64,000 nt of DNA from a virus. The stretch lies in the IMG/VR virus record IMGVR_UViG_3300045988_081432, positions 1 through 64,000 of that record; one strand, 5' to 3'. Below are positions 8,800-62,452 of the stretch, one piece after another. A program made the position numbers and the translations under genes. Position 1 is the first letter of the stretch. Each line of letters begins with the position of its first letter. The notes beneath the pieces were generated by a model. That model worked only from the letters and a program-made list of their open reading frames with translations. It was not told where the DNA came from and searched no databases.

Positions 8800-11625
8800 T
8801 TGTCAAAAATTGACCTATTCTATACTTTGAAATTAAACACGTCTGATATTTATGAACAAATTGCAAAAAATGGTTGCGTTGAAACAGACTTTAAAACAGC
8901 GAAGAATGCTGGCTGGGTGGTTGCTCTTGGTGATAATCAACTACTAAGATTTATTCGTCAGATTAAGGATAAACCTTTTGATAAAGAAAAGGTTCAAACT
9001 CTTTATGATAGGCGCAATATTTTAAAGCAAGACAAGAGTTCTAAGAAGAACGTAAGAGAAATTACAAAGATTCAGAATGAAATCAACGAACTACTATTTG
9101 TTCCAGACCTTGTGACAGTTAGAACTGATACTACGCAGAAGGATTATAAGCAGCTATGCAAGACTGGATTCTCTGTTAAATTTAAAGTGAATGATACAGA
9201 GTATGTAACAAAATATAAGCGTTTATGTGCTGGTGCTGGTCAGTTAAGAAAGAACTCTGCTAACTTTGTAAATGCAGAAATTTATGACCAGTTACTCAAT
9301 ATTATGCTTTGTGGTCTTGACGCAAAAAGTATAGGCAAGATTAATCTTGCTAAATTTGGAGCTTATCTTGCGCTGTCTACTTCTGCTACTAAAGTTGTTA
9401 AAACACCAAGAATCTGTGTTATTGACGATTATGAATATCCTTTAAAAGACCAAGTTGTTGATTGGATTTTCAAAAATGAAAAAGGTGAAGACGATATCAG
9501 AGCCGAGAAAATTGATTTTACGATGAACGCTTTTGACGGAGCTGGTATGGTTTGTCCCGAAATGGCTGAGAGATGGCAACAAGACTTAGGTCTGGATTAT
9601 TTACCATCAAGCTTTATTGTTCGAGCCGCATGGTTTAAAGGCGTTGCAAATTGCTTTGACTTTAGACGTTTTGCTCATGAGGTTGCCCATAAAGACACAA
9701 TTGTAGACATCTATGGAGTAACATATAATATTGACGACATTGATGTTATAGCAACAAAAAGTCAATTTAAACTGTGGAATAGATACCCTAATTTTCAGAT
9801 GTATCTAAGTTACTTCAAGAGATACGGTCATGTTTTTGGTATTGCGCGAGTAAACAAGCCAGAAAGTCAATTTGTGACAACTCTTAATTATCAGTATTTG
9901 CAAAGTAACAATTTCACAAAGGATTCTATTCAGAAGATTGCGGAACCTACTGTTAATTGGTTAAATAAAACAATGACTTGTGACCCCTTATACACTTATC
10001 TTATGATGATTGGTTATCATGAAGGGAATACAGTAGAACAACTTGAAAGAAAGGTGGATTCTTCTTTTGCAAAATGCCTTCTTTACAATATTGATATATT
10101 GAATGATGATTATGTTAGCAAAAAAGTAAAGAAACTAATTCAAACAAAGGTTGACCAAGCAAAAATCGGAAAGATTTATGTCGAGGGGTCTTATGACTTT
10201 TTGATTCCAGATTTATATGCTATGTGTGAACACGCATTCGGAATGGAAGTTCGTGGTTTACTTCCTGCCAAATGTATGTATTCAAAGCGTTGGGTAGATA
10301 AAGAAGCGAAAGTCATAAGTACACAACGTAGTCCTCTTGTTGCTCCTGCTGAGAATCAATTGCTCAATGTTTACTGTGATGATAAATGTAGGGATTGGTT
10401 TAGATATATTCAGTGTGGTAACATTTACAGTATTTGGGATTTAACGATTATTAGCCAATCCGATGCGGATTTTGACGGAGATATTGCAATGACCTCAGAT
10501 AATAAATATCTGGTAGATTCGATTGACCCAACTCTCCCAATTATTACTTATGAAAAACAAAAAGTTAAATCACAAAAAATTAATTTTGATAACTTAGGCT
10601 CTTTTGATGTAAAGAGTTTTGATAGTCCAATTGGAGGGATTACAAATCTCGCAAGTAATCTTTATGCTCTAAAAGAATTATTTGATAAAAATTCCAAAGA
10701 ATATGCAGAGATAGAAAAACGTATTAGAATGCTGCGTTTTTATCAGGGAACGGCAATTGACCATGCCAAGGGCTGCGTGTACAGCCCGCCCAACAAAAAT
10801 TGGTCTCATCGTCAGAAATACATTTCAATTACTGATAATATGACCGAAGAACAGAAACAAGAAGCTCAAAAACAAAACGAAAAAATCAAGTTCGAGAATA
10901 GTATTTGCTGTGATAAGAAGACTTATTTCTTTGGATACGTTTACCCACAGAAAATGAGAGAATTAAAATCTTATAAGAAAAGATATAAAAATCTTTGTAG
11001 GATGAAGTTTGGAATGAAGCTTCCAGAACTTCAAGGTAAAGAAGATAAAACAGAACAAGAAAAGAAATTTATCCGTGATTATTATAAATATATGCCACTA
11101 TTTAATTCTAATTGTGCGATGAACAATCTTGCCAAATATATTGAAGATTTTGAATTTAGTAAGAACAAGACGGAAAAATATTTTGATTATTCTTGTCTAA
11201 TGTCAGATAGAAACAGAGAGTTTAAGCCAGCCATTTGCAAGAAAATTAAAACTATCATTACAGATTTCAAAACAAGTTATGCAGTTTACACAAAGTCTTA
11301 TTGTTACGACAGGGATTATAATTTCTTTTCTGACGCAGCCAAAGAAAATAGAAGTTCATATTTTGATGAGCTGTTTAACAATTTCAAAGAAATTCTTGAA
11401 GAAGTTTTATCTAACGAAGAAGAGCTTGTTGATTATATGATTTATGTGTATTACAATCAACTCCCTTCTGTAGATAGGGTTTTGCTCTGGCAGGTTTATC
11501 CAGATGTAATTCTAAATAACGTAAAGAAAAACTCCAAATGCCATTATGAACTTGAAGAATCGGATGATGGTCAAGATTTTTTTGGAAAGAAGTTTGTTTT
11601 GAAGGAGGTTCAGAATGACGTTTAA
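8800..11625 (+). CDS. single-subunit two-barrel RNA polymerase, RDR/QDE-1/YonO-like
   Basis: Three blocks in the order seen in eukaryote-type RdRPs and SPbeta YonO: AFDGAGMVCPEMA (about 9529), PSSFIVRAAWFKGVA (about 9610-9650), and TQRSPLVAPAE followed by SDADFDGD (DADFDGD at 10462-10482; compare NADFDGD of beta-prime). TTG start. Confidence 0.7.
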   Translation: MSKIDLFYTLKLNTSDIYEQIAKNGCVETDFKTAKNAGWVVALGDNQLLRFIRQIKDKPFDKEKVQTLYDRRNILKQDKSSKKNVREITKIQNEINELLFVPDLVTVRTDTTQKDYKQLCKTGFSVKFKVNDTEYVTKYKRLCAGAGQLRKNSANFVNAEIYDQLLNIMLCGLDAKSIGKINLAKFGAYLALSTSATKVVKTPRICVIDDYEYPLKDQVVDWIFKNEKGEDDIRAEKIDFTMNAFDGAGMVCPEMAERWQQDLGLDYLPSSFIVRAAWFKGVANCFDFRRFAHEVAHKDTIVDIYGVTYNIDDIDVIATKSQFKLWNRYPNFQMYLSYFKRYGHVFGIARVNKPESQFVTTLNYQYLQSNNFTKDSIQKIAEPTVNWLNKTMTCDPLYTYLMMIGYHEGNTVEQLERKVDSSFAKCLLYNIDILNDDYVSKKVKKLIQTKVDQAKIGKIYVEGSYDFLIPDLYAMCEHAFGMEVRGLLPAKCMYSKRWVDKEAKVISTQRSPLVAPAENQLLNVYCDDKCRDWFRYIQCGNIYSIWDLTIISQSDADFDGDIAMTSDNKYLVDSIDPTLPIITYEKQKVKSQKINFDNLGSFDVKSFDSPIGGITNLASNLYALKELFDKNSKEYAEIEKRIRMLRFYQGTAIDHAKGCVYSPPNKNWSHRQKYISITDNMTEEQKQEAQKQNEKIKFENSICCDKKTYFFGYVYPQKMRELKSYKKRYKNLCRMKFGMKLPELQGKEDKTEQEKKFIRDYYKYMPLFNSNCAMNNLAKYIEDFEFSKNKTEKYFDYSCLMSDRNREFKPAICKKIKTIITDFKTSYAVYTKSYCYDRDYNFFSDAAKENRSSYFDELFNNFKEILEEVLSNEEELVDYMIYVYYNQLPSVDRVLLWQVYPDVILNNVKKNSKCHYELEESDDGQDFFGKKFVLKEVQNDV

Positions 11626-14568: not shown

Positions 14569-14645
14569 CGCAGAATAGCCCAATCAGGTACGGCGCTTGG
14601 CTCATACCCAAGAGATTCTTCGTTCAAATCGAAGTTCTGCACCCA
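14569..14645 (+). tRNA. tRNA-Met (anticodon CAU) with encoded CCA and a C1:A72 mismatch
   Basis: Cloverleaf folded by hand. Acceptor CGCAGAA/TTCTGCA (6 bp plus C:A). D arm GCC/GGC with a GG loop. Anticodon stem CTTGG/CCAAG with loop CTCATAC. 5-nt variable loop. T arm CTTCG-TTCAAAT-CGAAG, then C-CCA. Confidence 0.8.
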
Positions 14646-20138: not shown

Positions 20139-20744
20139 ATGGATATTTTTAGATATATTGAAGACGTATCTTATAAACTCGGTTTAAAAGTTGCAAATTA
20201 TTTCCATGAAGACAAGGATGGGATTGAAGAGACACAATATGGGATGTTCGCTATTTTGAGTTTCTTGTTTGAGTTTGGAACTGGACTTATTATATCTCTT
20301 ATTTTTGGATATGTCAAGTATTTTCTTGTATTTCAAATTACCTATTGTTTTCTACGTTCTGTTTGTGGTGGAGAACATTGCAAAACATTTGCATCTTGTT
20401 GGGCAGTAACAAACATTATCTCATTTGTTGGAAGTATGATAGCTATTTTATTATCCGTAAACAGTATGTTTGTAATGATTGGAGTTATTATTACATCTCT
20501 GGCATCTGTTGATATGTTTTATATTATTCCGAAACCAAGCGAAAATTCTCCTAGTAGAGGGAGTAGAGATATCGAGTTTAAAAGACGCTATATTGAGGGG
20601 ACTTGTGTGTTAATTTTCTTAGCTTGTATTTTGGCGTTTTTTGATATAAAGTTTGTTTCTGCTTCTATTTGCTCTGCTTATATTATGTGTTATATTATGC
20701 TATCTAAATATGGCGAAAAATTTATGACTCTATTTAAGTTTTGA
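20139..20744 (+). CDS. agrB: AgrB-family membrane peptidase (cyclic-peptide maturation)
   Basis: 201 aa, polytopic. LRSVCGGEHCKTFASC gives the R..GG.H-x6-C pattern (His80/Cys87), equivalent to AgrB His77/Cys84. Later IIPKPSENSP...FKRRY loop. Confidence 0.7.
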   Translation: MDIFRYIEDVSYKLGLKVANYFHEDKDGIEETQYGMFAILSFLFEFGTGLIISLIFGYVKYFLVFQITYCFLRSVCGGEHCKTFASCWAVTNIISFVGSMIAILLSVNSMFVMIGVIITSLASVDMFYIIPKPSENSPSRGSRDIEFKRRYIEGTCVLIFLACILAFFDIKFVSASICSAYIMCYIMLSKYGEKFMTLFKF

Positions 20745-40345: not shown

Positions 40346-40865
40346 ACAAAAGTTCAAAGAGAGTATTCCTAAAGATGTGGCAGTAATTAGACTGCATGAC
40401 AGCGCAAGTGGTTTTGGGCAAGATAGCAAGTCAACAAGATTTTCTATGAAATCTCCATTTGATTTTATCTTGTTCAAAACTCCTTGTATGTATTGTCTGG
40501 AATTAAAATCAACAGACAAGAAAAGTTTTTCTTTTGAACGTGAGAAACCAACGAAAGAAAACCCTACTAAACGAGAAATCCATTGGCATCAAATTCAAGC
40601 TCTTACTGAGTATAATAAGTATTGTAATTGTATATGTGGTTTTGTGTTAGACTTTAGAAATGATGGAACTTATTTCTTGAGTATCAAAGATTTCAATAAA
40701 TTTAAAGAAAAATCAACTAAAGTTTCAATAAATATTCAGGACTGTATTGCGTATGGTGCTGTTCAAATAGATAGAGAATTAAAGAAAAAATATTATAGCT
40801 ACGATGTAGCAAAGTTATTAGATAAGATTGGAAGTGACGAAATTGGGAAGAAGAACTGTATATAA
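40323..40865 (+). CDS. recU: RecU-like Holliday junction resolvase
   Basis: FEQKFKESI...VIRLHDS...SPFDFILFK...YCLELKST...IHWHQIQAL...GFVLDF follows the RecU order (D...E.K...Q). ATG 40323 with GGAG RBS. Confidence 0.55.
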   Translation: MNVGKIFEQKFKESIPKDVAVIRLHDSASGFGQDSKSTRFSMKSPFDFILFKTPCMYCLELKSTDKKSFSFEREKPTKENPTKREIHWHQIQALTEYNKYCNCICGFVLDFRNDGTYFLSIKDFNKFKEKSTKVSINIQDCIAYGAVQIDRELKKKYYSYDVAKLLDKIGSDEIGKKNCI

Positions 40866-41883
40866 TAGAATTTATACAGAAGAAATCTGGGCAAAGGTTA
40901 ATGAAGACAATAAGAACTTGTTGAAAGATTATCTTGCATATAAGACTACTGGCGGTCGTTCTCCACAGACGATTTATCAATATGAACAAATGATTCGTCT
41001 GTTCTTCTGTTGGAATTATTTGCATAATAAAGATACGTTCTTTGTGGATTTGAAGAAGCGGCAACTTGTTAGTTTCTTTAATTATGCAATTACAGAAATG
41101 GGATGGTCTAGTAATAGAATCTCTACTATTAAATCATCTCTATCTTCTATGTCAGATTATATTGAAAATGTTCTTGATGATGAGTTTCCTGATTTTAGAA
41201 ATATTGTTGTTAAACTGGAAACTCCTGTAAAGCAGACTGTTCGTGAAAAGACTGTTATGAGCGAAGAGCAGATTCAAGATTGTCTTGATAAATTGGTTGT
41301 CGCCAAACGGTATCAGGCGGCTTGCTATCTTGCTCTTGCTGTCAGCTCTGGTGCAAGAAAAGCAGAACTGATTCAATTTAAAGCAGATTGGTTCACTGAC
41401 GAAAATATTGTTTACGGCTGTATGTGGAAGACCCCTGAACAAATCAGAACCAAGGGAAAGGGTAAGCAAGGCAAGTTGCTTCATAAATTTACATTTATTA
41501 AGTCTTTCAAACCATACTATGAACTTTGGATGAAATATCGCAAAGAAAATAATATTGAGAGTGAATGGCTATTTATTGTAAAGAACGATGACGGCACTTA
41601 TCGTCAAGCAAGTATTTCAACAGCAGATAGCATTTGTAGAACAATTTCGGCTGTTTCTGGCCTAGATTTTTATAGCCACTGCTGTAGGCATCGTTATGTT
41701 ACAATGATGAAGGAAGCGAAGTTACCTGATGATGTTATTGTTGCGTTGGTAGGATGGCAGAGGGAAAGTGGTTCGGTTTTAGTGAACTTATATTCAGACA
41801 TTGACGTTGCAGACACGCTTGATGAATACTTTGATGAAAACGGTATCAAAGAAGTAAAGACTGGCACTGTAAGCGATATTTAA
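40828..41883 (+). CDS. tyrosine recombinase / phage integrase family; start uncertain
   Basis: SAM-like N-terminal domain. Catalytic residues in order: SSGARKAEL (Arg), HCCRHRY (His-x-x-Arg), VGWQ (Trp/His position), LVNLY (Tyr). Confidence 0.75.
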   Translation: MEVTKLGRRTVYNRIYTEEIWAKVNEDNKNLLKDYLAYKTTGGRSPQTIYQYEQMIRLFFCWNYLHNKDTFFVDLKKRQLVSFFNYAITEMGWSSNRISTIKSSLSSMSDYIENVLDDEFPDFRNIVVKLETPVKQTVREKTVMSEEQIQDCLDKLVVAKRYQAACYLALAVSSGARKAELIQFKADWFTDENIVYGCMWKTPEQIRTKGKGKQGKLLHKFTFIKSFKPYYELWMKYRKENNIESEWLFIVKNDDGTYRQASISTADSICRTISAVSGLDFYSHCCRHRYVTMMKEAKLPDDVIVALVGWQRESGSVLVNLYSDIDVADTLDEYFDENGIKEVKTGTVSDI

Positions 41884-44314: not shown

Positions 44315-45552
44315 ATGGCGCAATCTCAAAGTGATATTTTTAGTTTTCTAATTACACCTGAATTTGATACCAAAGGTGTCACTGACAGCGGAAAATATCT
44401 TGAAGAAGAAGTCAAGCAGATAGCAGAAAAGATATCAAATCAGATTAGCGAAGTCATGGGGAGGGGCTTTTCTTTCCCGAAAAATTTCAAAAAAGATGAT
44501 ATCAACGAAGTCACAAAACTAGTTGAAAGTTTAGGTGGCAGTGTAAAAAGAACTGGCGAATATATTACATCGTCTTTTAAGGATGCAAGCGGAACAACTG
44601 TAACGCTAAAGCAAAATTTAAAAGACGCAATAGATGTAGCAGAAGCAGAAAGCCTAAAGGCTGCCAAAAATATTCAAGAAGTAATCAACATAAGAAAAGA
44701 GTTTGAACAACTAAGAACTTCTACCGCTACATATTCTGGCGCAGAGCAAACCAAAGAGCAAAATCAACTTGAACAAAATATTATAAAAAGTATCGAAGAA
44801 CAATATAATTACCGACTAAAAATTATTGATGCTCAGAATAGTGGCAACAAAATTCAAGAGAACTATTATACAGAGCTTTTAAATATTGCAAAAGGCGAAG
44901 AACAGGTATACACAATTCAATATAACGGTTCTCAGAATAATATAAAATTTAAAAAACAAGAACTTGCACAAGAAGAACGACTCTATCAAAAAAAATCTGA
45001 TTCTGTAAAACAAGAAAATGAACTCGTTAATGCTATTAAACAGTATGCAAAACAATATCAGACTGTCAAGCAATTAGAGAGCAAAGGTCAACAAAACACT
45101 CAGGCTTATACTGATGCTAAAAATGCTTTACAGCAGCTAACAAATACTTTAACAACGTATGGTGTTAAAGTTGTAACAAGCTCCGACGGTACAACAAAAC
45201 TTGTAGCACAACAAAATTCAATGGCTGACAGCTCCAATAAGGTCAAAACAGCGTTGGACAATGCCAATGGCAGTTTAGCAAAAGCTGATACTGCACAAAA
45301 TTCCATATCGAAATCTATTCAGTCTAGTGTAGAGAATTTTATTAAATATCAGGTGGTTATGGAAGCCATCAACAAAATCACTAGCGAATTTACATCTGCA
45401 ATTTATGATATGAACCAAGCCATGACACAAGTTCGTATGGTTACAATGGGTAGCTATGAAGATACTGTAGCATTGGCTGATAGTTATACTAAATTGGCAA
45501 AGCAACTTGGTACTACTACGACCACGGTTGCAGAAGGCGCAGATGCTTGGCT
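44315..45552 (+). CDS. tape measure protein, exon 1 of 3
   Basis: Coiled-coil-rich ORF with RBS AAGGAGG. The frame runs into junk plus a stop right after ...GADAWL. Confidence 0.7.
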
Positions 45553-45920
45553 TAAATGTCTAGGTCAAGTAAAATCTCTCTAATTGCTGGAAAGTCCTTA
45601 GAGCTTTGATAACCAAGTTATTATAGTGATATAATAATGGCTGAACTAATCATTCAGGCATGGTAAAATAATCGAAGATTGGATAATCAGCAGCCAAGAT
45701 TCTTAAATATTTATAATAAAGCTATTAAAATATTTCAATAGATATGATATAATATTTAAGAATAAGGTTCATCGACTAATTGTAAGGGCAAGTGCTCTGA
45801 AACGGGAGATACCTTGTTAAATTTAACAGATAAAGATATAGTCAGAACTTATGTAGAAATACATAGAAAATCCTATATGGAATCTTTTGATAAGTGGCGA
45901 TTATTAAGAGTAACAAATTG
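45553..45920 (+). mobile_element. ORF-less group I intron 1 in the tape measure gene (368 nt)
   Basis: P1: exon CUUGGCU (45546-45552) pairs with intron GGUCAAG (45563-45569), with a terminal U:G. The intron ends in G (45920). Splicing gives ...ADAWL|RQGYNAQEAMEML. Confidence 0.65.
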
Positions 45921-46496
45921 AAGACAGGGTTATAATGCTCAAGAAGCAATGGAGATGCTAAAGCAGTCAACTACGTTGGCTGTTGTTGGTCAATTGGACG
46001 CAGCTTCTAGCACTGACCAACTTACGGCAATCACAAAATCCTATAATGTAGCTGTAGAAGATACAAGCAAAATCGTAGATAAACTTGTTGCGGTTGACTT
46101 AAATTATGCCGCTAGTACAGGTGAAATCTCTACAGCATTACAAAAAGTCGCTAGTTCTGCTGGACAGGCAGGGTTAGGGCTTGATAAACTAATCGGTCTA
46201 ATTACAATTTCCGAGGAAAAGACTCGACAAGCGCCAGAAGTTATTGGTTCCGCTTGGCAGAGTATTATCGCGCGTATAGGTAAAATCACAGCAAAAGTAG
46301 ATTTAGATGACCTTGTTGATGAAAATGGCAAGGTTGTGGCTACAATTAACGATGCTGATAAAGTTTTATCTAAATATGGTATCAATTTAGTTGACACTAG
46401 TGGTAAAATGAGAGACATGGGAACCATTATGGACGAAATCGGTGCTAAATGGGGTCAAATGTCTACTCTTGAACAAAACCAGTTGGCTTATGTGGT
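45921..46496 (+). CDS. tape measure protein, exon 2 of 3
   Basis: The frame is open from 45922 through the track ORF 45949-46521. The junction keeps the reading frame. Confidence 0.65.
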
Positions 46497-47532
46497 TTTA
46501 AGTAGCCACAATACGAAGTAATTCGTAGGTGTTTATAACACTACAACATTCCTATATCGGTGAACCCTAAGTTTGTACAAATAAGGGAATACCGAGATAA
46601 TTTTATTATGAAGGATGGTGGAAAAGGAATGGATTTTTATTCCTTGTCACAAGATGAAGTTTCAGTTATTTTAGGTGGGTTGCTTGGCGATTCATGTTAT
46701 AAAAAACGAGATAACGTCATCGTATTTTCTCACTCAGCAAAACAAAAAGAATATTTGTCTTGGAAACATGATATATTATCAGATATCTCGTCTGATATTC
46801 GCACAAGAGTAGTAGGAAAATCTATTATTACAGATGAAGAATTGGTTAATGTGTCATTTTCTACAAAAACAAATAAAAAATATCACTCCGATTATAACTC
46901 TATAAGAACCCTAATATTTTCCAACGGTAAAAAAACAGTCAATAGAAAATGGCTTAATATGCTCACACCTTTATCATTGGCCGTTTGGTGGATGGACGAT
47001 GGGTGCTTGTCCGTTCATAAGAAAAAAGATGGCGCTATTTCAAGATTTGGTAAATTAAGTACAAATGGATTCTCATACGAAGAGCAAAAAATTATGAAGG
47101 ATTATTTCAAGACGGTTTGGGATATTGATGTAAAAATAACCCCAGAAAAGGGAAATTATTTCTTGAGATTTACAGTCCCGAACTTAAAAAAACTATTCTT
47201 AATTATATATCCATTTGTAATGCAAGTGCCAGACATGATTTATAAGATAAATATGAAATATAAACTAGAAAAACTGAGTGATGACGACGAGTATAAAGTA
47301 ATACAAACTATTATATACGATACTCTCGATAATAAAAAATCGTAACGACTAAACGAGGAATGCTCCTTATATCAAACACATCTCTTATTGTTGGGATGTG
47401 TTTTGTTGTATAAGGATGAAAATATAGTCTGAACTATAAGGAAACTTATAGAAGAGCGGTCAAGTGTAAAGACACTTTTAAGGAGAACCGTTCTCGCCTA
47501 TTTTAATAATAGGTCACAAAAGTAACAGATTG
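46497..47532 (+). mobile_element. group I intron 2 in the tape measure gene, carrying a homing endonuclease ORF (1036 nt)
   Basis: P1: exon UGUGGU (46491-46496) pairs with intron GCCACA (46505-46510), with a terminal U:G. The intron ends in G (47532). Splicing gives ...QLAYVV|AGVRQRNVFIAAMEDY. Confidence 0.65.
46560..47345 (+). CDS. LAGLIDADG homing endonuclease (intron-encoded); start uncertain
   Basis: Two LAGLIDADG motifs: VILGGLLGDSCY and LAVWWMDDGCL. Confidence 0.75.
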   Translation: MNPKFVQIREYRDNFIMKDGGKGMDFYSLSQDEVSVILGGLLGDSCYKKRDNVIVFSHSAKQKEYLSWKHDILSDISSDIRTRVVGKSIITDEELVNVSFSTKTNKKYHSDYNSIRTLIFSNGKKTVNRKWLNMLTPLSLAVWWMDDGCLSVHKKKDGAISRFGKLSTNGFSYEEQKIMKDYFKTVWDIDVKITPEKGNYFLRFTVPNLKKLFLIIYPFVMQVPDMIYKINMKYKLEKLSDDDEYKVIQTIIYDTLDNKKS

Positions 47533-50500
47533 GGCAGGCGTAAGACAGAGAAACGTATTTATTGCAGCTATGGAAGATTACAATAAAGTCTTGGAAGCAA
47601 CTAGTGTTGCAGAAAATGCAAACGGTGTTGCTGCTGAAAAAATGACGGTTTACAATGAATCTCTTGAAGCTGCACAAAATAGATTAACCGCAAGTGTTCA
47701 ACAATTTGCACAGGATTCTAACCTTGATAGAACCCTTGCATTAGCATACGACGGTTTGTCAAAAGTCGTAGAAATTCTAAATATTCTACTAAATAAAATT
47801 CCAGTTCTATCACCAATGATTAAAGCACTAGGGGCTGCTCTAGCAACAGCTTTCGTAGGTAATATGCTTAAAAATATATGGGAGACTTCCAATTTAATTG
47901 GGCAACTTCCAAGTCTTGCGGCAACTGCCACAAGTGCGATTGGGGCGCTAAATACAACATTATTTACAATGGGTTCTGTTGCAGTACCAATATGGGGTGT
48001 GGTAGCGGCCATTACCGCCATTGGAGCTGTTGCGAAAGTAGCATGGAACGCTTGGAAAGATGCTCAACCAGAGGCGCAAGTCAAAAAAGCAAACGAAGCC
48101 CTGCAAGAGAGCCAACAGAGTCTTGATGAGACAAATAATAAAATAACTGAAATTAACAAACAAATCTCAGAAATCAACTCTAAAGGTACTTTAACCTTAG
48201 CAGATGAGCAACAAAAAGAGAACCTTCAAGGGCAACTTGATGTTCTAAAAGAAATTCAGAAAACGCAAAATGATGTTAATGAGGCGAATAAAGCCGTATC
48301 AAAAGAAAAAACTCAGGAAGAGATTAAATCAAGATATGGTGATAATAAGTCTGTTGAAGAATATCAGTCTTCTTTTGTAGGTATTGCACCGAAACTTTAT
48401 GACACAGAATCAGCAAGCGTCAATCAACTCCTTGCAAATATTGCCCAGCTAAACAAAGAAAAACAAAATCTCGATAAAACAGATGAGAATTATGCGACTA
48501 GGTTACAACAACTTAATTCTCAGATGGACGCTCAAACACTTGCTTTACAAAATCAGAAATTAACAATTCTTCAAGATATGCAAACTTTACAAAATCTTGG
48601 GGATACAAGTTCTGATGTGTATAAGATACTTCAAGAGCAACTTGACACGGTTAACCTAGCGCTTGACCCGTCTAATTTTGAAACGATTAAAGTCCAAAAT
48701 TTAATTGACACTTCTGGTATTTCTGATAAGTTACAAGAAGCTGTTCAAGACGGTGGAGAAGCTGGGCAAAAAACAGCAAAAGAGTATGCAAATAAATTTG
48801 CACAACAAATTCTAAATTCTGATGATTCTATAAAAGCAGCTTGGGCGCAAGCTATGAATATTGATGTCAATGACTTAAACATTGACAATTTAACGCAAGA
48901 ACTCCTTACGAAGTTCCAGCAAATGTATGGGCAAGTTAATCAAGCAATATTTGAATTAACTTCCGAACAGGTTGCAGACTGGACTACCGAGGCAACAAAT
49001 GCTCTCGTTACTCAAGACGAGGCAATGAAGGATTACATTTCTACCGTTGCAAATGTCACAGAGAAACAAGAGATTCTAAATACGGCGTATAGCGAAATGA
49101 AAGAAAAGGGCGAACTTAGTGTCGCCACAGTTCAGAAGCTAATTAAGCAAGAACCGTCTCTTGTTAGTGCGCTTACTGTAGAAAACGGGCATATCAGAAT
49201 AAATATTGATTCTCTTCAAGATTTATCAAATGGTTATTTTGATACAGCTATTGAAACAAAAAAACAACAAATAACACAAACGCAGTCTGTGATTGATGAA
49301 ACAAAAAAAAGAATAGAAGCAATAAACCAAGAAATGATTGCTCTTGGTAAGCTTATCAAAAAAAGAATAGAAGCAGGAGAAAAGGTCTCTGCGACAGATT
49401 TAGACACATATCGTGGACAGCAAAAAACAAAATACTATCTTGAACAACAAGGAAAGCAAGCGCAAGAGACTCAGGACGATTTACAAGAACAATTAGATGC
49501 TTTAACAAAATTACAAGAAGCTGGACTAACTTATACACCTTCAAAAGGCAAGTCTTCTGGGAAATCTGCCGCTGACAAAGCTGCAAAAGACTTTGAGAAC
49601 GCAATCAAAGAAAAAATCAAAAACCTAAAGAGCATCGTAGAACTATATTCTGAACGAACTGATTGGGACGACCCCACTGTTATTCAGGAATTTACGAATG
49701 ATTACAACAACCTCTTTGACGAAGTAATAAACAATCCAAAAGCAAGGAAAATCTTAGCCGATTCTTTCAATTTGGATATTAGTGAAATGTCCGACGAAAA
49801 AGCAATTGAGGCTTTAACTGCTCTTTGGAAGAAACAAGCTGGAACTATAGATGAGGCAAGACAGAAACTTCAAGACAATTACTTAAAAGGCATTCAAGAT
49901 GCCGCTAAAGCCGAGAAAGAGCAGTTTGATGAAGCTAAAAAGCAGATTGAAGAACTAAATAAGATGACCACCAACATGATTAAGACTTATGTTGGTCTGC
50001 TTGAAAAGGCTGGTAATCTTGTTTTTAGTATTCTTGAAAAGGTCTCTGACAGATATGATAAACAGATAGATAATCTTGATAAAATCATGGATGGTCTTGA
50101 TGACCAGAAAGATGCTTTTGATGACAAGATTGATGCTCAAAAAGAATATCTACAGCTTCAAAAAGAAGAGATGGATAATGAGGACAAGCTTGCCGAAAAG
50201 ACAAAATCTATCGCTGATATTGATGCACGTCTAATTGAGTTACAATACGACGACTCTGCCGCTGCGCAAGCTGAACGTCTAAAACTTCTTGACCAGAGAG
50301 CAGAAGCAGAGAAAGACCTTAAAGACCTACAGGCTGAACAAGCCTACGATTCTCAGATAAACGCTCTAGACGCTCAGAAGAAGCAGTTCGACAAAGATAT
50401 TGAAGCTCAAAAGAAAGCCCTAGAAGAGCAGAAAAAGGCACTAGAAGAGTCTCAGACAAAATTTGAGAATACTCTGAACAAAATAAAATCTGGATTTGAT

Positions 50501-52021
50501 GGTTTTATCAAAGTTCTGAATAGTGATATATTCCAAAATCTCGCTGCTAACTTGTTAAATAGCATAGATGGCGACACTCTAAAACAAGCTCTTTATTCTT
50601 GGAATAGACTATTTGGTTCTGGTATTGATGCCGATGTTACAAATACATTACAGGCATACGGTACTGCTGGGAAATATGGGTGGACTCCCGGTAAAAATAT
50701 GCAAGATTTCTTGAATATGTTTACTCAAGGCTCTAACACCCAACAACAAATCCTTGACCAAGTAGAACAGGCCATTTCTTCTAATAAGGCTGGCAATCTT
50801 GATATTTCTGGATATAAAAATAACATAGATTTCTTGAACAAGTCTTGGGACTCTTTTAAGCAAAATGCTATTGATAGCGTTACTCAAGTTGGTGAGAGTT
50901 CTCAATCCATTGTTAAGAACCTCTGGGATTTCGGCAACAAAATGCTTAATCAAGAATCTGCTTCTGGCAGTGGTGTTGTACGAACTATCGCAAAGGGTAT
51001 TTCCACCACTATAAAAAGTGGTAAAAAGGGAATATCTACATTTCTGCAACAAGGCATTCAGGCTAACCAAGCTCTAGGCATTAGCGGGCAGGGTATACTA
51101 TCTCAAGTTGGTAACTTTGCACAAAATATCATGAAGCTTGTCGGAGGTTCTGGCGGTGGCATCTTAAAAACTACAATACAGTTCGGCAGTACACTATTAG
51201 GCAAAATTAGTGGAACCTCTTTGAGCTTAGCAAAGGGAATTACAACGGTTGGTGGAAATGGTATTGCTACTATCGGCAATTTAGGAGTACAAGTTCTTAA
51301 ATCTCTGTCTGGTGTGGCAACTAGCATTTTTGGAAGTAGCGCTACCGCAGGGATTACTAGCATGATACCAACACTAGGTTCTGCCGCAGGAGGTCTTGGT
51401 AGTGCCGCTGGGTTACTCGGTCTTGGGGCAAAAGGTGGCCTTATCGGATTAGCTGTGGCTGGTGGAGCTATTCTTTCAAGTGGTATCAAATCTAATCTTA
51501 AAAATCTTTGGGGGTCTAACTTACCAACATGGAAGAAAGTTACTGGAACCGCACTTAATTTCCTCACTCCGGCGGGCTGGTTCTCAGGTTTTAAAAACCT
51601 CCTTTTTGGTCGTCACCACTCTGGTGCTGATTACGTCAAAAAACAAAACCCCACATTGGATAAGATGCTTGGGTTAGGGAGTGACGAAACTGTTTCTATC
51701 CTAAAAGTCGGTGAAGCAGTTGTACCTACATGGGCAAATAACGCTAGTAGTTCAGCTTCTAACAGTAACTACACTGGCGCTGCAACTCAAGCTGTAAGAG
51801 CCGCCCAGCAAGCTTCCAGAATATCTTCTTCCGTTAACAATAGTAACAGCTCTGTGGTGAATACAATATCTATTCCTATTAATATTCAGGGCAACGCAGA
51901 TGAATCTACTGTTAAATTGTTGAGAGAAGAGTCGGATAAAATTGCTAAAATGGTTTTCAAACAAATAAATAAACAAACAAATATGAGTGGATACAGAAAT
52001 ATACGAGCCGCAACAATTTGA
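47533..52021 (+). CDS. tape measure protein, exon 3 of 3
   Basis: Hydrophobic segments, very long coiled coils and Gly-rich TM-like repeats near the C-terminus. The spliced product is about 2100 aa. Confidence 0.7.
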
Positions 52022-58154: not shown

Positions 58155-58203
58155 TACGCTTGTTACTATTTCGTTGTTAAATTATTTATAAGGAGTGGAT
58201 TTA

Positions 58204-60369
58204 ATGCCTAAATATTCTGAAAATTTGAATCTAAGACTAGATGACCCTGTTGCCGACGTATCACAGTTGTCAAGAAACTGGTTTGAGGCTAACTTCGGAT
58301 ATACCGATAGTAACATGACCAAAATTGATTCTGCCTATAAAGCAATGAAAGATGATATAGCTGATACTCCAACAAAATCTGGCGTTGGAGCTACTGGTGA
58401 CTGGGATATCAATGTTACTGGCTCTGCCAATAGCGCTGTTCATGATGGAGTAGGAAACGACATCTCTTCTTCTTATATAACTGGTATATCAGTCGGAAAC
58501 ACCTCTATTACTTATACAAAAGGAGACGGAACCGACCAAGAAGAGACTATTAAAACAGATAAAACTTTGAGTATTAAAGGAATGGCTGCGGACGCAAAGG
58601 CAACGGGAGACTTGATTAAGAAATCTATCTATCCTACACTTGTGGTAAGTGTTACTGCTGGTTCATCTGTTACCGTTACGAAGGACTCTTATTCGTTCTC
58701 TGGTACTACTGACGACAAAGGCAAAGTAGAGTTTAACCTCCCCGCATTGGGACGATGGGATATTTCTGCAAGTCATAATGGTAGAACCGTAACCGACTTC
58801 ATTGATATTGATGTTCTTGCTAAAAGGTATACTATCAGTTTGGTATATTTTAACGCAAACTTAGTTGTTAGTGCTCCAACTAATGCCGTTGTGACTGCTA
58901 TTTCTGGACACTATCAGTATACTAAGACCTCTGGTTCTGAAGGAAACGCTACTTTTGACATTAATCACGCTGGCAATTATACTGTTACAGCCACAATGAA
59001 TACCGCCACTTCCAATCCTGTGCCTGTAGATATTACAGAAGATGGTGGCAATTATAGCGCCGAGGCAGTATTCCGCACTATTACAGTAACTTGTAACTCC
59101 GGTAGCTCTATTACAGTCCAAAAAGATGAAGAGGTCTTAACCGGTAATAGTACAGGCGTCCCTGTTAAATTTTATATTCCATCTACCGGCTCTTGGACTG
59201 TAACAGCAACGCTGGGTGAAAATGTCGCCCAAGAAGAAATTAACGTAGTAGACTTTACCGACTATCCTATTACACTAAATTATGCTAGAATTTTTGGTGT
59301 AGTATGGGCTTATTCTAATTCTTCTACCGCGCTTGCTCGTGTTACAAAAGCTAATGACCCGAATAACTATGTAAATACAGATATTACTACCAGTCCCTCT
59401 CCCGCTGTAGGTACTGGTTCTGGTAGTAGTCCATTTGACGATTATATGCCGTGGAAGGGTATGGACGAATATAACATCGTTAACGGTGTTGTTGGGGCAA
59501 AATATGGCGAAGCTGGATTCTCTCGTAGTTCTAACGATGTAATGGTATATATTCCTGAATTTTGGTATAAGGTCGTAGACAATGGTAGCGCAAGCAAGCG
59601 TTACTTTTACATTGCAAATAAGGCAACAGATGGATTCGAGAAACATCCTGGTTCTGGGCGCTATGTAGGTCGTTATAATACGTCTAACAATCGTTCCGTA
59701 TCTCCTTCGACGCCTTACATTAATATGAGTCGTGCATCTGCTCGTAATGGGGCAAGAGGCAAGGGAAACAAGTGGGCGCTATACGATTACGCTTCTTGGT
59801 GTGCTGTATGGTTACTTTATATAATAGAATATGCGGACTGGAACAGCCAGAGCAAAATTGGTAGAGGGTATGTAGATAACAACATCAATCTAATTGCTTC
59901 TGGCTATACTGACAGCATGACTTATCATACTGGACGTGTCTCTGGTTCTGATGGCTCTACCTCAGTGCAATATCGCCATATTGAGAACCCTTGGGGAAAC
60001 GTCTACGAGTGGATTGATGGCATAAACTTTAGTGGTAATGGAGTATATATTTGTACTGATATTTCTAAATACGCCGATGATACCGTCACAAACTATACTT
60101 ATGCCGGCGCTAAAACTCAATCTAGCGGATACATCTCTATGACTGGATATTCTTCCACATATCCATGGAGTTTTTATCCAACTAGTACCAGTGGCAGCGA
60201 AACAACATATATCCCTGACTACTTTTACTCTGGCGGCGGTTGGCGTGTTTTGTGTGTTGGTGGTGATTGGGACGGTGGGTCGAGGGCCGGTCTGTTCTAT
60301 TTCTATGCGGACGTTGGTTCTAGCAGCTCGAGCTCGAGCATCGGGGCGCGGCTCCTTTTCGTCCCCTAA
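58204..60369 (+). CDS. tail fibre / receptor-binding protein, DGR target with C-terminal C-type-lectin/FGE-like fold
   Basis: ATG 58204 lies 9 nt after AGGAG. Three Ig-like repeats (...GKVEFNLPALGRWDISASHNG; ...GNATFDINHAGNYTVTATMN; ...VPVKFYIPSTGSWTVTATLG). C-terminus NPWGNVYEWIDG...GGGWRVLCVGGDWDGG...IGARLLFVP carries the VR. Confidence 0.75.
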   Translation: MPKYSENLNLRLDDPVADVSQLSRNWFEANFGYTDSNMTKIDSAYKAMKDDIADTPTKSGVGATGDWDINVTGSANSAVHDGVGNDISSSYITGISVGNTSITYTKGDGTDQEETIKTDKTLSIKGMAADAKATGDLIKKSIYPTLVVSVTAGSSVTVTKDSYSFSGTTDDKGKVEFNLPALGRWDISASHNGRTVTDFIDIDVLAKRYTISLVYFNANLVVSAPTNAVVTAISGHYQYTKTSGSEGNATFDINHAGNYTVTATMNTATSNPVPVDITEDGGNYSAEAVFRTITVTCNSGSSITVQKDEEVLTGNSTGVPVKFYIPSTGSWTVTATLGENVAQEEINVVDFTDYPITLNYARIFGVVWAYSNSSTALARVTKANDPNNYVNTDITTSPSPAVGTGSGSSPFDDYMPWKGMDEYNIVNGVVGAKYGEAGFSRSSNDVMVYIPEFWYKVVDNGSASKRYFYIANKATDGFEKHPGSGRYVGRYNTSNNRSVSPSTPYINMSRASARNGARGKGNKWALYDYASWCAVWLLYIIEYADWNSQSKIGRGYVDNNINLIASGYTDSMTYHTGRVSGSDGSTSVQYRHIENPWGNVYEWIDGINFSGNGVYICTDISKYADDTVTNYTYAGAKTQSSGYISMTGYSSTYPWSFYPTSTSGSETTYIPDYFYSGGGWRVLCVGGDWDGGSRAGLFYFYADVGSSSSSSSIGARLLFVP
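60227..60357 (+). repeat. DGR variable region (VR)
   Basis: 131-bp copy of TR. 13 of the 14 mismatches are at TR adenines. Confidence 0.85.
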
Positions 60370-60394
60370 TGGGGGACTGGGGGTCGCAACCCCC
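60361..60394 (+). promoter_or_regulatory. two GC-rich hairpins immediately 3' of VR (candidate DGR target-recognition element and terminator)
   Basis: GTCCCC-TAATG-GGGGAC (60361-60377, spans the stop codon) and GGGGG-TCGCAA-CCCCC (60379-60394) followed by ATTTTT. No equivalent follows TR. Confidence 0.55.
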
Positions 60395-60530
60395 ATTTTT
60401 AATGATTATTTAGACGCTTTCGCTTGTTTTATCTAAATGGCTCCAAGATAAAACAGACTTTTTATATTTTGGGATTGTTTGTGCTGCGCCCGATGTTCTA
60501 CTAGGCATTCGACGCTAGTGGAAAACGCTG

Positions 60531-60661
60531 ACTCTGGCAGCGGTTGGCGTGTTTTGTATGTTGGTGGTGATTGGAACGGTGGGTCGAATGCCGGTCTGTT
60601 CTATTTCAATGCGAACAATGATTCTAGCAACTCGAACTCGAACATCGGGGCGCGGCTACTT
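60531..60661 (+). repeat. DGR template region (TR)
   Basis: Invariant, adenine-bearing copy with AAC/AAT codons in the VR frame. Lies directly upstream of the RT. Confidence 0.85.
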
Positions 60662-60784
60662 GTTTATTCTCCGTTTATTATCGCACAAACTCTCCCGCAC
60701 CACTTGGTGAAAATATTGCCAATTAGGAAGCGAATTAGTAGGTTTATTCTCGAAAATTTGCGCGGCAAACAAGGAGATGTTTTT

Positions 60785-61945
60785 ATTCCTAAAAGAAAAG
60801 GTTATTTATATGAAAAAATGCTAAATAAAGAGCAAATTCGCTTTATCATTCAAGAAGCGGCAAGAGGGAAAACAAATAGAAGAGAAGTTCGCCGTGTATT
60901 GAAAAATTTAGATTTATATGTAGACAAAACATACGAGATGCTGGTTACGGAGTCGTTTAAGCCATCTGTCCCGCATGAAAAAGAAATCTATGACGTAAGC
61001 AGTCAAAAGGTCAGAATTATCAAAACAGTACCATTTTGGCCTGATGGAATTATGCATTGGCTTATTGTTGATGCTCTAAAACCTATCTTTATGAAAGGTA
61101 TGTATGATTGGTCTTGTGCTTCTATTCCCGGAAGAGGCGGGGTAAAAGTCCAAAAGAAACTGCAAAAATTTATTAGAACAAGCAAAAAGGCTAAATATGC
61201 CGCCGAATTAGATGTCTCGAAATACTATCCGTCAATATCTACTGATACCCTAATAGAATTATTAAGAAGAAAAGTAAAAGATAAGAAAATGATTAAAATA
61301 GTTCAGGATATAGCGGAATCTTGCGGTGGAGGTCTAGCGATAGGATACTATATTTGTCAATGGCTGGCGAACTTTTATCTGGAATCACTAGACCATTATA
61401 TTGCATCTCTGCCCGGTGTAGATTGTTACACCAGATATATGGATAATATAACATTGATAGGGGCAAACAAAAAACTGTTACATGAAGCAAGAAGAAAAAT
61501 AGAAATGTTTTTAAAAGATAAATTGTCATTAAAACTAAAGGGAAATTGGCAAGTATATAGATTATCTTTTACAAGAAAAGTTTCCCAAAAACACCTTCTT
61601 CTAGACAAAAAACAACAAAGACTAAGAAAACCTAGGTTAGTATCTGCTGTTGGATGTAGATTCGCTAAGACATATACTATTGTAAGAAAGAGAAATTTTC
61701 TACGTTTAACCAGACAAAGCAGAAAAATTCAAAAGAAGCAAAACAAACATTTAAAAATATCTTTTAACATGGCGACGGGTTTTATAAGCAGAATCGCACA
61801 ATTAACAAGGTGCGACAGTCAATATGCCAAAGAAAAATACGTTTATTCAATAAACATGAAGCAATTAAAGGAGGTTATCAGAAATGAAAGTAAACGCAAG
61901 CTGTGCTCCAAACAAAAGCTTTCGTGTAGAGGAAATCCCGAATAA
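60785..61945 (+). CDS. DGR-type reverse transcriptase; start uncertain (ATT 60785 after AGGAG, or ATG 60818)
   Basis: RT motifs in order: AARGKTNRREV, IPGRGG, ELDVSKYYPSI, GLAIGYYICQWLANFYL (DGR-like IGxxx[S/C]Q), YTRYMDNITLIG (YxDD position). The track ORF from 60479 simply reads through TR. Confidence 0.8.
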   Translation: MPKRKGYLYEKMLNKEQIRFIIQEAARGKTNRREVRRVLKNLDLYVDKTYEMLVTESFKPSVPHEKEIYDVSSQKVRIIKTVPFWPDGIMHWLIVDALKPIFMKGMYDWSCASIPGRGGVKVQKKLQKFIRTSKKAKYAAELDVSKYYPSISTDTLIELLRRKVKDKKMIKIVQDIAESCGGGLAIGYYICQWLANFYLESLDHYIASLPGVDCYTRYMDNITLIGANKKLLHEARRKIEMFLKDKLSLKLKGNWQVYRLSFTRKVSQKHLLLDKKQQRLRKPRLVSAVGCRFAKTYTIVRKRNFLRLTRQSRKIQKKQNKHLKISFNMATGFISRIAQLTRCDSQYAKEKYVYSINMKQLKEVIRNESKRKLCSKQKLSCRGNPE

Positions 61946-62411: not shown

Positions 62412-62452
62412 ATTTATTTGTTAAATTATTTATAAGAAAAGGAGATAATATT

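Follow-up and report, generated by a model that had tools for sequence, protein, structure and literature searches.

The prototype of the diversity-generating retroelements (DGRs) is the mtd-avd-TR-brt cassette of Bordetella phage BPP-1, where TR stands for template repeat, and systems of the Bordetella type need a GC-rich inverted repeat for the recognition of their target (PMC5758913). A layout devoid of accessory genes, named Architecture A and made up of the target gene, the TR and the reverse transcriptase (RT) gene, accounts for 29% of 372 DGRs, and one RT lineage lacks avd entirely (PMC5758913). As to the RNA elements, the motifs RT-1 to RT-19 have been described as orphans occurring near RT genes, and only RT-10, in the TR-RT spacer of BPP-1, has been assigned to a DGR (PMC5737381). 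In this study, we examined a stretch of 64,000 nucleotides of viral DNA (IMG/VR record IMGVR_UViG_3300045988_081432, positions 1 to 64,000), hereafter referred to as the window, in which a gene for a putative tail fibre ends with a variable repeat (VR) and is followed by a TR and an RT gene (Table 1), an arrangement that is the documented Architecture A. On the basis of the sequence comparisons reported below, the locus very probably represents an active DGR with an accessory-less target-TR-RT architecture, carried by a siphovirus-type phage of gut Clostridia. In its anatomy and mechanism it is a known kind of system, that is, a textbook DGR on a phage receptor-binding protein.

The two repeats (60227 to 60357 for the VR and 60531 to 60661 for the TR) form a single direct repeat of 131 nt, ungapped, with an offset of 304 and 89% identity, of which the repeat search returned no third copy in the window. 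The 131 nt of the upstream copy run to within 12 nt of the end of the 721-aa open reading frame (ORF) of the fibre, with 10 nt from the end of the VR to the stop codon. The copies differ at 14 positions, and 13 of these fall at adenines of the TR (10 A>G, 2 A>T, and 1 A>C), while none falls at an adenine of the VR; the 131-nt repeat contains 25 adenines in the TR and 12 in the VR, and for 13 or more of the 14 mismatches to fall on 25 adenines among 131 positions the hypergeometric probability is 2.3e-10. Inside the mutable tract, all 12 A-site changes (12/12) affect codon position 1 or 2 in the fibre frame. The remaining one, the A>C at 60658/60354, shows no variation among the relatives, all of which feature CTACTT in the TR and CTCCTT in the VR; from this conservation, it is to be regarded as the marker of the boundary between the initiation of mutagenic homing (IMH) element and its TR counterpart IMH*, with no mutagenesis involved, which leaves 12 mutagenic A changes. 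The TR design comprises 15 variable codons (8 AAY and 7 with a single A), from none of which a stop codon can be reached, for about 4e13 protein variants. In relatives, the 5' limit of the VR tract may be displaced outward by a few bases, as far as about 60221. An earlier note on this DNA, prepared from the letters alone, had aligned the two repeats by eye, and our repeat search reproduced its coordinates, length and offset; every TR/VR pair in its list of 14 mismatches recurred in our tabulation, the TR-frame and VR peptides it gave agree with the translations, and the enrichment at adenines persisted upon formal alignment. Of the thirteen A-site mismatches that it counted, 12 are mutagenic, the pair 60658/60354 being the fixed boundary difference just described.

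Evidence for ongoing diversification came from near-identical genomes, which were reached through the P0001 cluster. L012 is the same as the window apart from 1 difference in 6.9 kb. L013 and L014, obtained from other samples, carry a TR identical to that of the window and show in their flanks 3 and 2 differences, respectively, in the 3088 nt upstream of the VR and 0 in the 2173 nt downstream, whereas the VR differs from that of the window at 15 sites in L013 (13 at TR adenines) and at 19 sites in L014 (15 at TR adenines). These genomes offer a clean natural example of phages from different samples which differ almost only in the VR. In particular, at the non-A sites 60223, 60224, and 60226, L014 has the base of the TR, from which it follows that the homing tract reached further 5' in this genome, as would be expected for a 5' end defined by homology. 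A comparable situation was observed for L006 and L007, whose RT is about 54% identical to that of the window: the RT and TR DNA are identical between them, and over 3.4 kb only 17 VR sites (15 at TR adenines) and 3 nearby bases differ. In both comparisons (L013 and L014 with the window, and L006 with L007) the transfer is unidirectional, from TR to VR, with the caveat that among the members of the 90% cluster the TR differs at adenine positions. L001, whose RT shows 97% amino acid identity, shares the same anatomy and has all 15 of its 15 TR/VR mismatches at TR adenines. The four non-A differences between the window TR and the L001 TR are each mirrored in the VR of the same genome, which implies copying between the repeats after the two lineages split and, hence, concerted evolution of TR and VR; the divergence between the window and L001 amounts to 18.9% in the VR versus 1.6 to 4.5% in the spacers and the RT. 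In the relatives, the share of TR/VR mismatches located at TR adenines was 15/15, 15/15, 9/9, 16/17, 10/11, 10/11, and 15/15. The exact sequence of the 488-aa ORF of the window spanning TR and RT is absent from the records, a megablast of the 3.7-kb region against 50,697 phage records gave no match, and an RT-based scan of viral contigs returned no relative.

The TR itself has undergone some erosion. Six adenines have been lost in the 5' part of the window TR (60530 to 60579) through AAC>GAC, AAC>GGC, AAT>GAT, and AAT>GGT changes, the losses being polarised by four outgroup TRs (L001, stretch 10048 to 10100, L002, L004, and L006), and at the six sites the window VR has the same bases as the window TR. 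Furthermore, the TR peptides of the 156-member cluster differ at Asn and Tyr codons (including P0391 to P0404), and the TR of P0404 is VR-like over most of its length, with both TR flanks present. This pattern suggests occasional VR-to-TR conversion or TR-directed homing, i.e., a leaky directionality, with chimeras of the metagenomic assembly as a possible source. One could go further and suppose that no retroelement is involved at all, the repeats being a duplication kept alike by gene conversion and the adenine bias arising by chance, editing or selection; gene conversion between the repeats does seem to take place, as shown by the erosion of TR adenines in agreement with the VR and by the single hybrid copies seen in the relatives L003 and L005. 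However, the adenine specificity (P = 2e-10) is found again, independently, in at least 7 loci, the changes comprise A>T and A>C in addition to A>G, the TR is constant while the VR varies, and the TR has as its neighbours a conserved RNA motif and an RT from the DGR clade, so that we regard the conversion of a plain duplication as scarcely credible compared with a DGR.

The gene for the target of the putative DGR is preceded by tape-measure and Dit genes and one for a Tal-like minor tail protein, with a GH25 endolysin gene downstream, and it was also called at 721 aa in L012 to L014. The protein matched phrog_5302, "tail protein", with an E value of 1.4e-78 over residues 329 to 721. A phmmer search of its C terminus against the PDB sequences gave chance matches only; with no relative of known structure at the sequence level, the fold was established through structure prediction. 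The AlphaFold2 model of the C-terminal 394 residues, based on 61 homologs, reached a predicted local distance difference test (pLDDT) of 90.2 and a predicted template modelling score (pTM) of 0.90, and Foldseek against the PDB placed TaqVP first (5vf4, 7e-11), together with Mtd (1yu0 to 1yu4, 1e-4 to 8e-4) and, among later matches, the formylglycine-generating enzyme (FGE)-like PvdO, TvpA (2y3c), and EgtB. The matches in BFVD were tail collar fibre proteins of many gut phages, including crAss-like ones, with a query template modelling score (TMq) up to 0.89. On the grounds of the gene position after tape measure, Dit and Tal-like genes and of these tail collar fibre matches, the label "tail fibre" seems reasonable for the target. 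Moreover, in the alignment of the 61 homologs the scaffold is invariant (GW, GG, AGLF, S, and GARL), and the unresolved or variable columns are those corresponding to AAY codons of the TR. The VR lies at the 3' end of an ORF with a lectin fold.

The RT gene begins 124 nt after the end of the TR, and its product belongs to the DGR clade. In the PDB, the best match was the RT of the Bordetella phage DGR (8ub7, 9e-13), followed by GsI-IIC (2.9e-8) and a retron-type RT (7e-7), with no clustering with group II intron or retron RTs. The nearest annotated phage RTs, at 29 to 34% identity, are those of Lactobacillus phage LBR48, Butyrivibrio phage Arawn, Faecalibacterium phage FP_Epona, and crAss-like phages. 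With respect to L001, the ratio of nonsynonymous to synonymous substitution rates (dN/dS) of the RT is 0.10, a value indicating that the enzyme is under purifying selection. The earlier note had placed a 721-aa fibre ORF with a lectin-fold tip upstream of an RT ORF opening at 60785, directly after the TR, and had read the whole as a DGR acting on a phage fibre. Both ORFs were confirmed, the RT being in frame from 60785 to 61945 with an RVT_1 domain and its first position agreeing with the homologous ATT, and the reading as a DGR is supported by the adenine specificity, the affinity of the RT, the fold of the target (matching TaqVP, Mtd, and TvpA), and the differences between near-identical genomes, which lie almost only in the VR, at TR adenines.

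Several observations weigh against an active element. The evidence of activity is comparative throughout; the sole mismatch at a non-A position (T60589/G60285, T>G at 60285) departs from adenine specificity; no sigma-70-like promoter for TR-RT was found after the terminator; and the RT starts with a non-ATG codon (ATT). The Bordetella RT requires Avd, and no Avd-type Pfam match was obtained among the 44 small ORFs; nor was any accessory protein (Avd, HRDC, MSL, or CH1) recognized. In motif C, which aligns with RYMDD of the Bordetella RT, the catalytic YxDD is represented by YMDN, with the replacement of the second catalytic Asp with Asn, and motif 4 reads IGYYICQ in place of IGxxxSQ, with I, G, and Q kept and Ser changed into Cys. 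In a 2012 survey, both Asp residues of YxDD were 100% conserved in 155 DGR RTs, and the motif-4 variants SP, SH, NQ, PA, AQ, and VQ were given as still functional, with CQ not listed (Schillinger 2012, PMC3521204).

The loss of the second Asp, the non-ATG start and the missing Avd, together with the six adenines lost from the TR with respect to relatives and the one non-A mismatch, could be taken as traces of a fossil, i.e., a formerly active DGR whose RT is now dead and whose VR is frozen. This seems to us very unlikely, in that near-identical genomes with the same TR have different VRs with A-site changes, the motif xMDN occurs in 114 of 114 close homologs within a large clade showing the same diversification pattern, the dN/dS of the RT is 0.10, and the ATT codon is conserved in the 156-member cluster. 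In particular, [Y/H]MDN was present in each of the 114 close homologs in which the motif could be read and IGYYICQ in 107 of 120 homologs, and this clade-wide conservation indicates that the departures are no lesion. Given the evidence of activity, YMDN would depart from the canonical signature without arguing against DGR function.

A different explanation for the same replacement is that diversification occurs in trans, through a canonical YxDD DGR RT of the host or of a co-resident prophage, with the local xMDN protein serving only in RNA binding or targeting. Replacement of the second Asp kills well-studied RTs (as for D186 of the RT from HIV-1), and components of DGRs can function in trans (Wu et al. 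2018, PMC5758913). Against this stand the absence of a second RT from the window, the constant adjacency of TR, RT-18 RNA, and RT across relatives at 53 to 97% identity, hosts and samples, the purifying selection on the RT, and the conservation of the motif A Asp, the first Asp of motif C and the Q of motif 4; besides, a virulent-looking phage of 60 to 80 kb could not rely on a host element across samples. We therefore assign to an RT acting in trans a very low probability and maintain that an active, self-contained DGR is the more plausible reading. The A-specific diversification under way in members of the clade makes it most likely that the D-to-N enzyme has catalytic competence.

With regard to the distribution of this replacement, D-N was found in 25 of 134 full-length divergent RT representatives, drawn from an exhaustive search with 5257 hits; these 25 are grouped in a neighbour-joining ordering, next to the subclade of the window, while the RTs of LBR48, Arawn, FP_Epona, and the crAss-like phages retain DD and SQ. 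A full-text search for motifs of the YMDN, HMDN, or YxDN type returned nothing relevant in the searchable library. It might be hypothesized, with reservation, that these sequences belong to a large and apparently undescribed DGR RT subclade, characterized by an invariant Asn ([Y/H]MDN) and IGYYICQ, ongoing A mutagenesis without Avd, an RT-18 spacer and a leaky TR directionality. If this were true, a natural RT with a D-to-N active site would be competent, a condition for which the GDN motif of mononegavirus polymerases provides a parallel, and the altered metal site could bear on Avd-independent selective infidelity. Such an abundant clade of gut-phage DGR RTs, which lacks the second catalytic Asp and Avd and yet, judging from the sequences, is evidently active, would make available a compact mutagenic RT that consists of one protein and is guided by RNA, suited to studies of mechanism or to the engineering of targeted diversification.

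As regards its start codon, the N termini of the homologs, MPKR[V/I]G[F/Y]LY, align to IPKRKGYLY in the window RT, on which basis translation probably starts at ATT 60785, at a distance of 8 nt from the upstream AAGGAG. The ATG 60777 lying next to this sequence is in another frame; TTG 60758, in frame, is an alternative. The ATT codon, encoding Ile, is conserved throughout the 156-member (90%) cluster, and a rare start codon of this kind could possibly keep the RT levels low.

The elements in cis around the repeats are consistent with the features of known DGRs, in that IMH and IMH* sequences and a GC-rich inverted repeat 3' of the VR could be recognized on sequence features. The GC-rich 14-mer is common to the 3' ends of VR and TR, and the next base is C in the VR and A in the TR in 6 of the 6 loci compared (window, L001, L002, L004, L006, and L007). 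In hairpin 1, the 4-bp core and the non-coding 3' half GGGGGAC are invariant in 6 loci, and the outer pairs are not kept. For hairpin 2, 100% of the cells are paired across loci, and two pairs are double-changed (UA<->CG) between lineages; it agrees with the GC-rich inverted repeat of Bordetella-type DGRs and represents a candidate DGR target-recognition hairpin. The T-run which makes of it an intrinsic terminator belongs to the window lineage only, and we rejected the possibility that hairpin 2 serves only as the fibre terminator, as the relatives keep the hairpin, with compensatory changes, without the T-run.

In the TR-RT spacer, the RT-18 motif scored well above its gathering score (Table 1), and its 3' end includes the Shine-Dalgarno sequence of the RT (AAGGAG, 60771 to 60776). 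RT-18 occupies the same position in L001 to L007 and in phage LBR48, whereas FP_Epona carries RT-4 there. By analogy with RT-10, RT-18 would be a DGR spacer RNA recruiting or priming the RT, and an orphan Rfam motif would thereby gain a function; a literature search on RT-18 together with DGRs returned nothing relevant in the searchable library. The RNA fold of 60398 to 60790 as a whole was not significantly more stable than that of shuffled sequences (z = -1.5). We also noticed a 38-nt direct repeat, 82% identical, at 58168 to 58205 and 62412 to 62449, with the pattern ATTT.GTTGTTAAATTATTTATAAG.A..GGA; one copy is just 5' of the fibre start and the other at the start of a small ORF preceding the endolysin, so as to enclose the block of fibre, DGR, and ORF132, and they may represent a shared regulatory element or a boundary of module exchange.

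As for the accessory genes, the 160 nt separating the VR from the TR contain no ORF. Such genes are dispensable for a DGR, given the 29% of 372 DGRs devoid of them. ORF132, which overlaps the 3' end of the RT gene, was considered as a substitute for Avd and rejected, in that it has no Avd-type match, is unlike the positional ORF of LBR48, and is directly after the fibre in L015, which has no RT. In this last genome (MT835573.1, 2289 to 4345), the C-terminal domain of the fibre is 63% identical, the ORF132 homolog is directly next to it, and neither TR nor RT was found in the 8-kb locus. From the arrangement in L015 and the lack of likeness to the LBR48 ORF, it follows that ORF132 belongs to the fibre/lysis module and is not DGR specific; judging from these sequences, the TR-RT cassette seems to have been inserted between the fibre and ORF132 genes.

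By analogy with the Bordetella phage DGR, an RNA covering the TR (60531 to 60661) and the RT-18 spacer (60698 to 60776) presumably associates with the RT, whose gene lies immediately downstream; the RT would copy the TR into complementary DNA (cDNA) with misincorporation opposite template adenines. The cDNA would then replace the VR (60227 to 60353) at the 3' end of the fibre gene, and homing would be limited at the 3' side by the GC-rich IMH-like element and the post-VR hairpin(s) and, loosely, at the 5' side by homology. Up to 15 codons could in this way be recoded on the ligand-binding face of the receptor-binding domain with its C-type-lectin fold, and the phage would thereby alter or retain its host-receptor specificity. 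The RNA intermediate, the priming in the spacer, the misincorporation by the window RT and the receptor-binding role are inferred.

Table 1. Coordinates of the DGR components and of other features of the window (positions refer to the 64,000-nt stretch)
Feature	Position	Strand	Basis and remarks
Target gene, 721-aa tail fibre/receptor-binding protein	58204 (ATG)-60369	+	ORF; alternative GTG start at 58195
Fibre C-terminal domain region, C-type-lectin/FGE-like fold, VR at its end	59185-60366	+	394 aa modelled
VR, variable repeat, mutable tract	60227-60353	+	Repeat search; mismatch table; 15 codons able to vary
IMH-like 3' end of VR	60340-60357	+	GC-rich ATCGGGGCGCGGCT then CCTT; C60354 fixed and VR-specific (A in TR)
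Hairpin 1, GTCCCC-TAATG-GGGGAC	60361-60377	+	DNA fold; fibre stop TAA (60367-60369) in loop
Hairpin 2, 7-bp GC-rich stem, 4-nt loop CGCA	60378-60395	+	Terminator scan; T-run 60396-60400
TR, template repeat	60531-60657	+	24 A in tract; function non-coding though within open frame
IMH*-like 3' end of TR	60644-60661	+	ATCGGGGCGCGGCT + ACTT; A60658 fixed
RT-18 RNA motif (Rfam RF03021), TR-RT spacer	60698-60776	+	68.7 bits vs gathering score of 41.3
DGR reverse transcriptase, 386 aa	60785-61945	+	Pfam RVT_1, 1.3e-9; phrog_1423, 7e-77
RT motif 4, IGYYICQ	61340-61360	+	
RT motif C, YMDN	61436-61447	+	Asn codon AAT at 61445-61447
ORF132, 132 aa	61884-62282		Overlaps RT 3' end; syntenic in all close relatives; acidic
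Group I intron	45510-45866		Rfam, 69.5 bits
LAGLIDADG homing endonuclease ORF	46560-47345		

Some relatives of the locus showed an irregular organization. L003 (6740 to 6926) and L005 (6740 to 6928) have the RT and RT-18 and a single hybrid copy of VR and TR, joined at the 5' side to the fibre gene and at the 3' side to the TR flank, with the fibre ORF entering the spacer; this is either a natural recombination between VR and TR, collapsing the DGR, or an artefact of short-read assembly. In L002 (6505 to 6787), the stop codon TAA in the loop of hairpin 1 is changed into TAC, and the ORF stays open over some 90 further codons, across the VR-TR spacer and into the TR. On the 14-kb contig L004 (5876 to 6070), the VR is in a 64-aa ORF, with 9/9 mismatches at TR adenines, and genes of replication type but no fibre gene are found upstream, so that it may represent a truncated target or a rearranged contig; the same contig bears on the minus strand (11527 to 11606) a twister-sister ribozyme with 75.7 bits.

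Outside of the DGR, the tape-measure region of the window (44315 to 52021) comprises, in this order, a 422-aa ORF, the group I intron, a 190-aa PhageMin_Tail ORF, the LAGLIDADG ORF, and a 1483-aa tape-measure ORF, and it is probable that at least one self-splicing intron splits the tape-measure gene. In L001 (17044 to 21467), the gene for the alpha subunit of DNA polymerase III (PolIII) contains an intein (PT-HINT/LAGLIDADG_3), with a group I intron (20341 to 20578) between its two parts; this phage lineage is rich in self-splicing elements. A tyrosine-recombinase ORF (Phage_integrase, 1.2e-11) was found at 40828 to 41883, amid the plus-strand block of late and structural genes, an odd placement for an integrase in a phage which also encodes NrdD and, in L001, PolIII alpha. 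The window also contains a tRNA-Met (CAT) gene (14569 to 14645), and among its 44 small ORFs Pfam matches were obtained to the Acb2/Tad1 hairpin domain (2.5e-7), a family of anti-CBASS/Thoeris sponges, to SocA_Panacea (7e-10), to HU/Bac_DNA_binding, and to a radical-SAM activase (Fer4_12), probably NrdG.

The comparison with known systems was extended to RTs of other kinds. The RTs of group II introns and retrons share with that of the window the RVT_1 palm and fingers, but they are more distant PDB matches; different from them, the window has a motif 4 of the DGR type, IGxxx[S/C]Q, rather than QGxxxSP, and a pair of TR and VR with A-specific changes. The Rfam search near the RT gave RT-18 and a sub-threshold RT-17 only, with no group II intron RNA and no retron msr/msd, and the locus does not belong to either class. 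With regard to the target, TaqVP (5vf4) and TvpA (2y3c) have the same C-type-lectin/FGE-like fold, and their variable residues lie in roughly the last 45 aa; they are, however, cellular surface proteins of Thermus and Treponema rather than phage fibres, with 13 to 17% identity.

The BPP-1 DGR resembles the locus of the window in the position of the VR at the 3' end of the gene for a receptor-binding tail fibre with a C-type-lectin fold, in the TR upstream of the RT, and in the A-specific differences between TR and VR at AAY codons. Likewise, both have a GC-rich IMH/IMH* end at which a specific difference sets the TR apart from the VR, a GC-rich hairpin that follows the VR and has a loop of 4 nt, and a structured TR-RT spacer RNA, the latter being RT-10 in BPP-1 and RT-18, of another Rfam family, in the window; moreover, the BPP-1 RT (8ub7) ranks first among the PDB matches, and Mtd matches the target in structure. 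Different from BPP-1, the window has no avd, YMDN instead of YMDD and IGYYICQ instead of IGSLTSQ, and two consecutive hairpins after the VR, the first across the stop codon; its RT, about 25 to 30% identical, has a longer and very basic C-terminal region.

A further term of comparison is given by the Architecture A1 DGRs found in Firmicutes and gut phages, which lack accessory genes (Wu et al. 2018, PMC5758913), and for which we considered FP_Epona, LBR48, Arawn, and the crAss-like phages. Their RTs, 29 to 34% identical to that of the window, have the canonical DD (NIDD, YMDD, YMDD, and YADD) and SQ, and FP_Epona has the RT-4 RNA instead of RT-18. In these systems, the gene order is the same as in the window, with tail fibre, TR, RT, a small ORF, an XkdX-like ORF, and holin/endolysin, and no avd; furthermore, the fibre of FP_Epona is annotated as a "BPP-1-like major tropism determinant," and LBR48 shares with the window the same RT-18 RNA.

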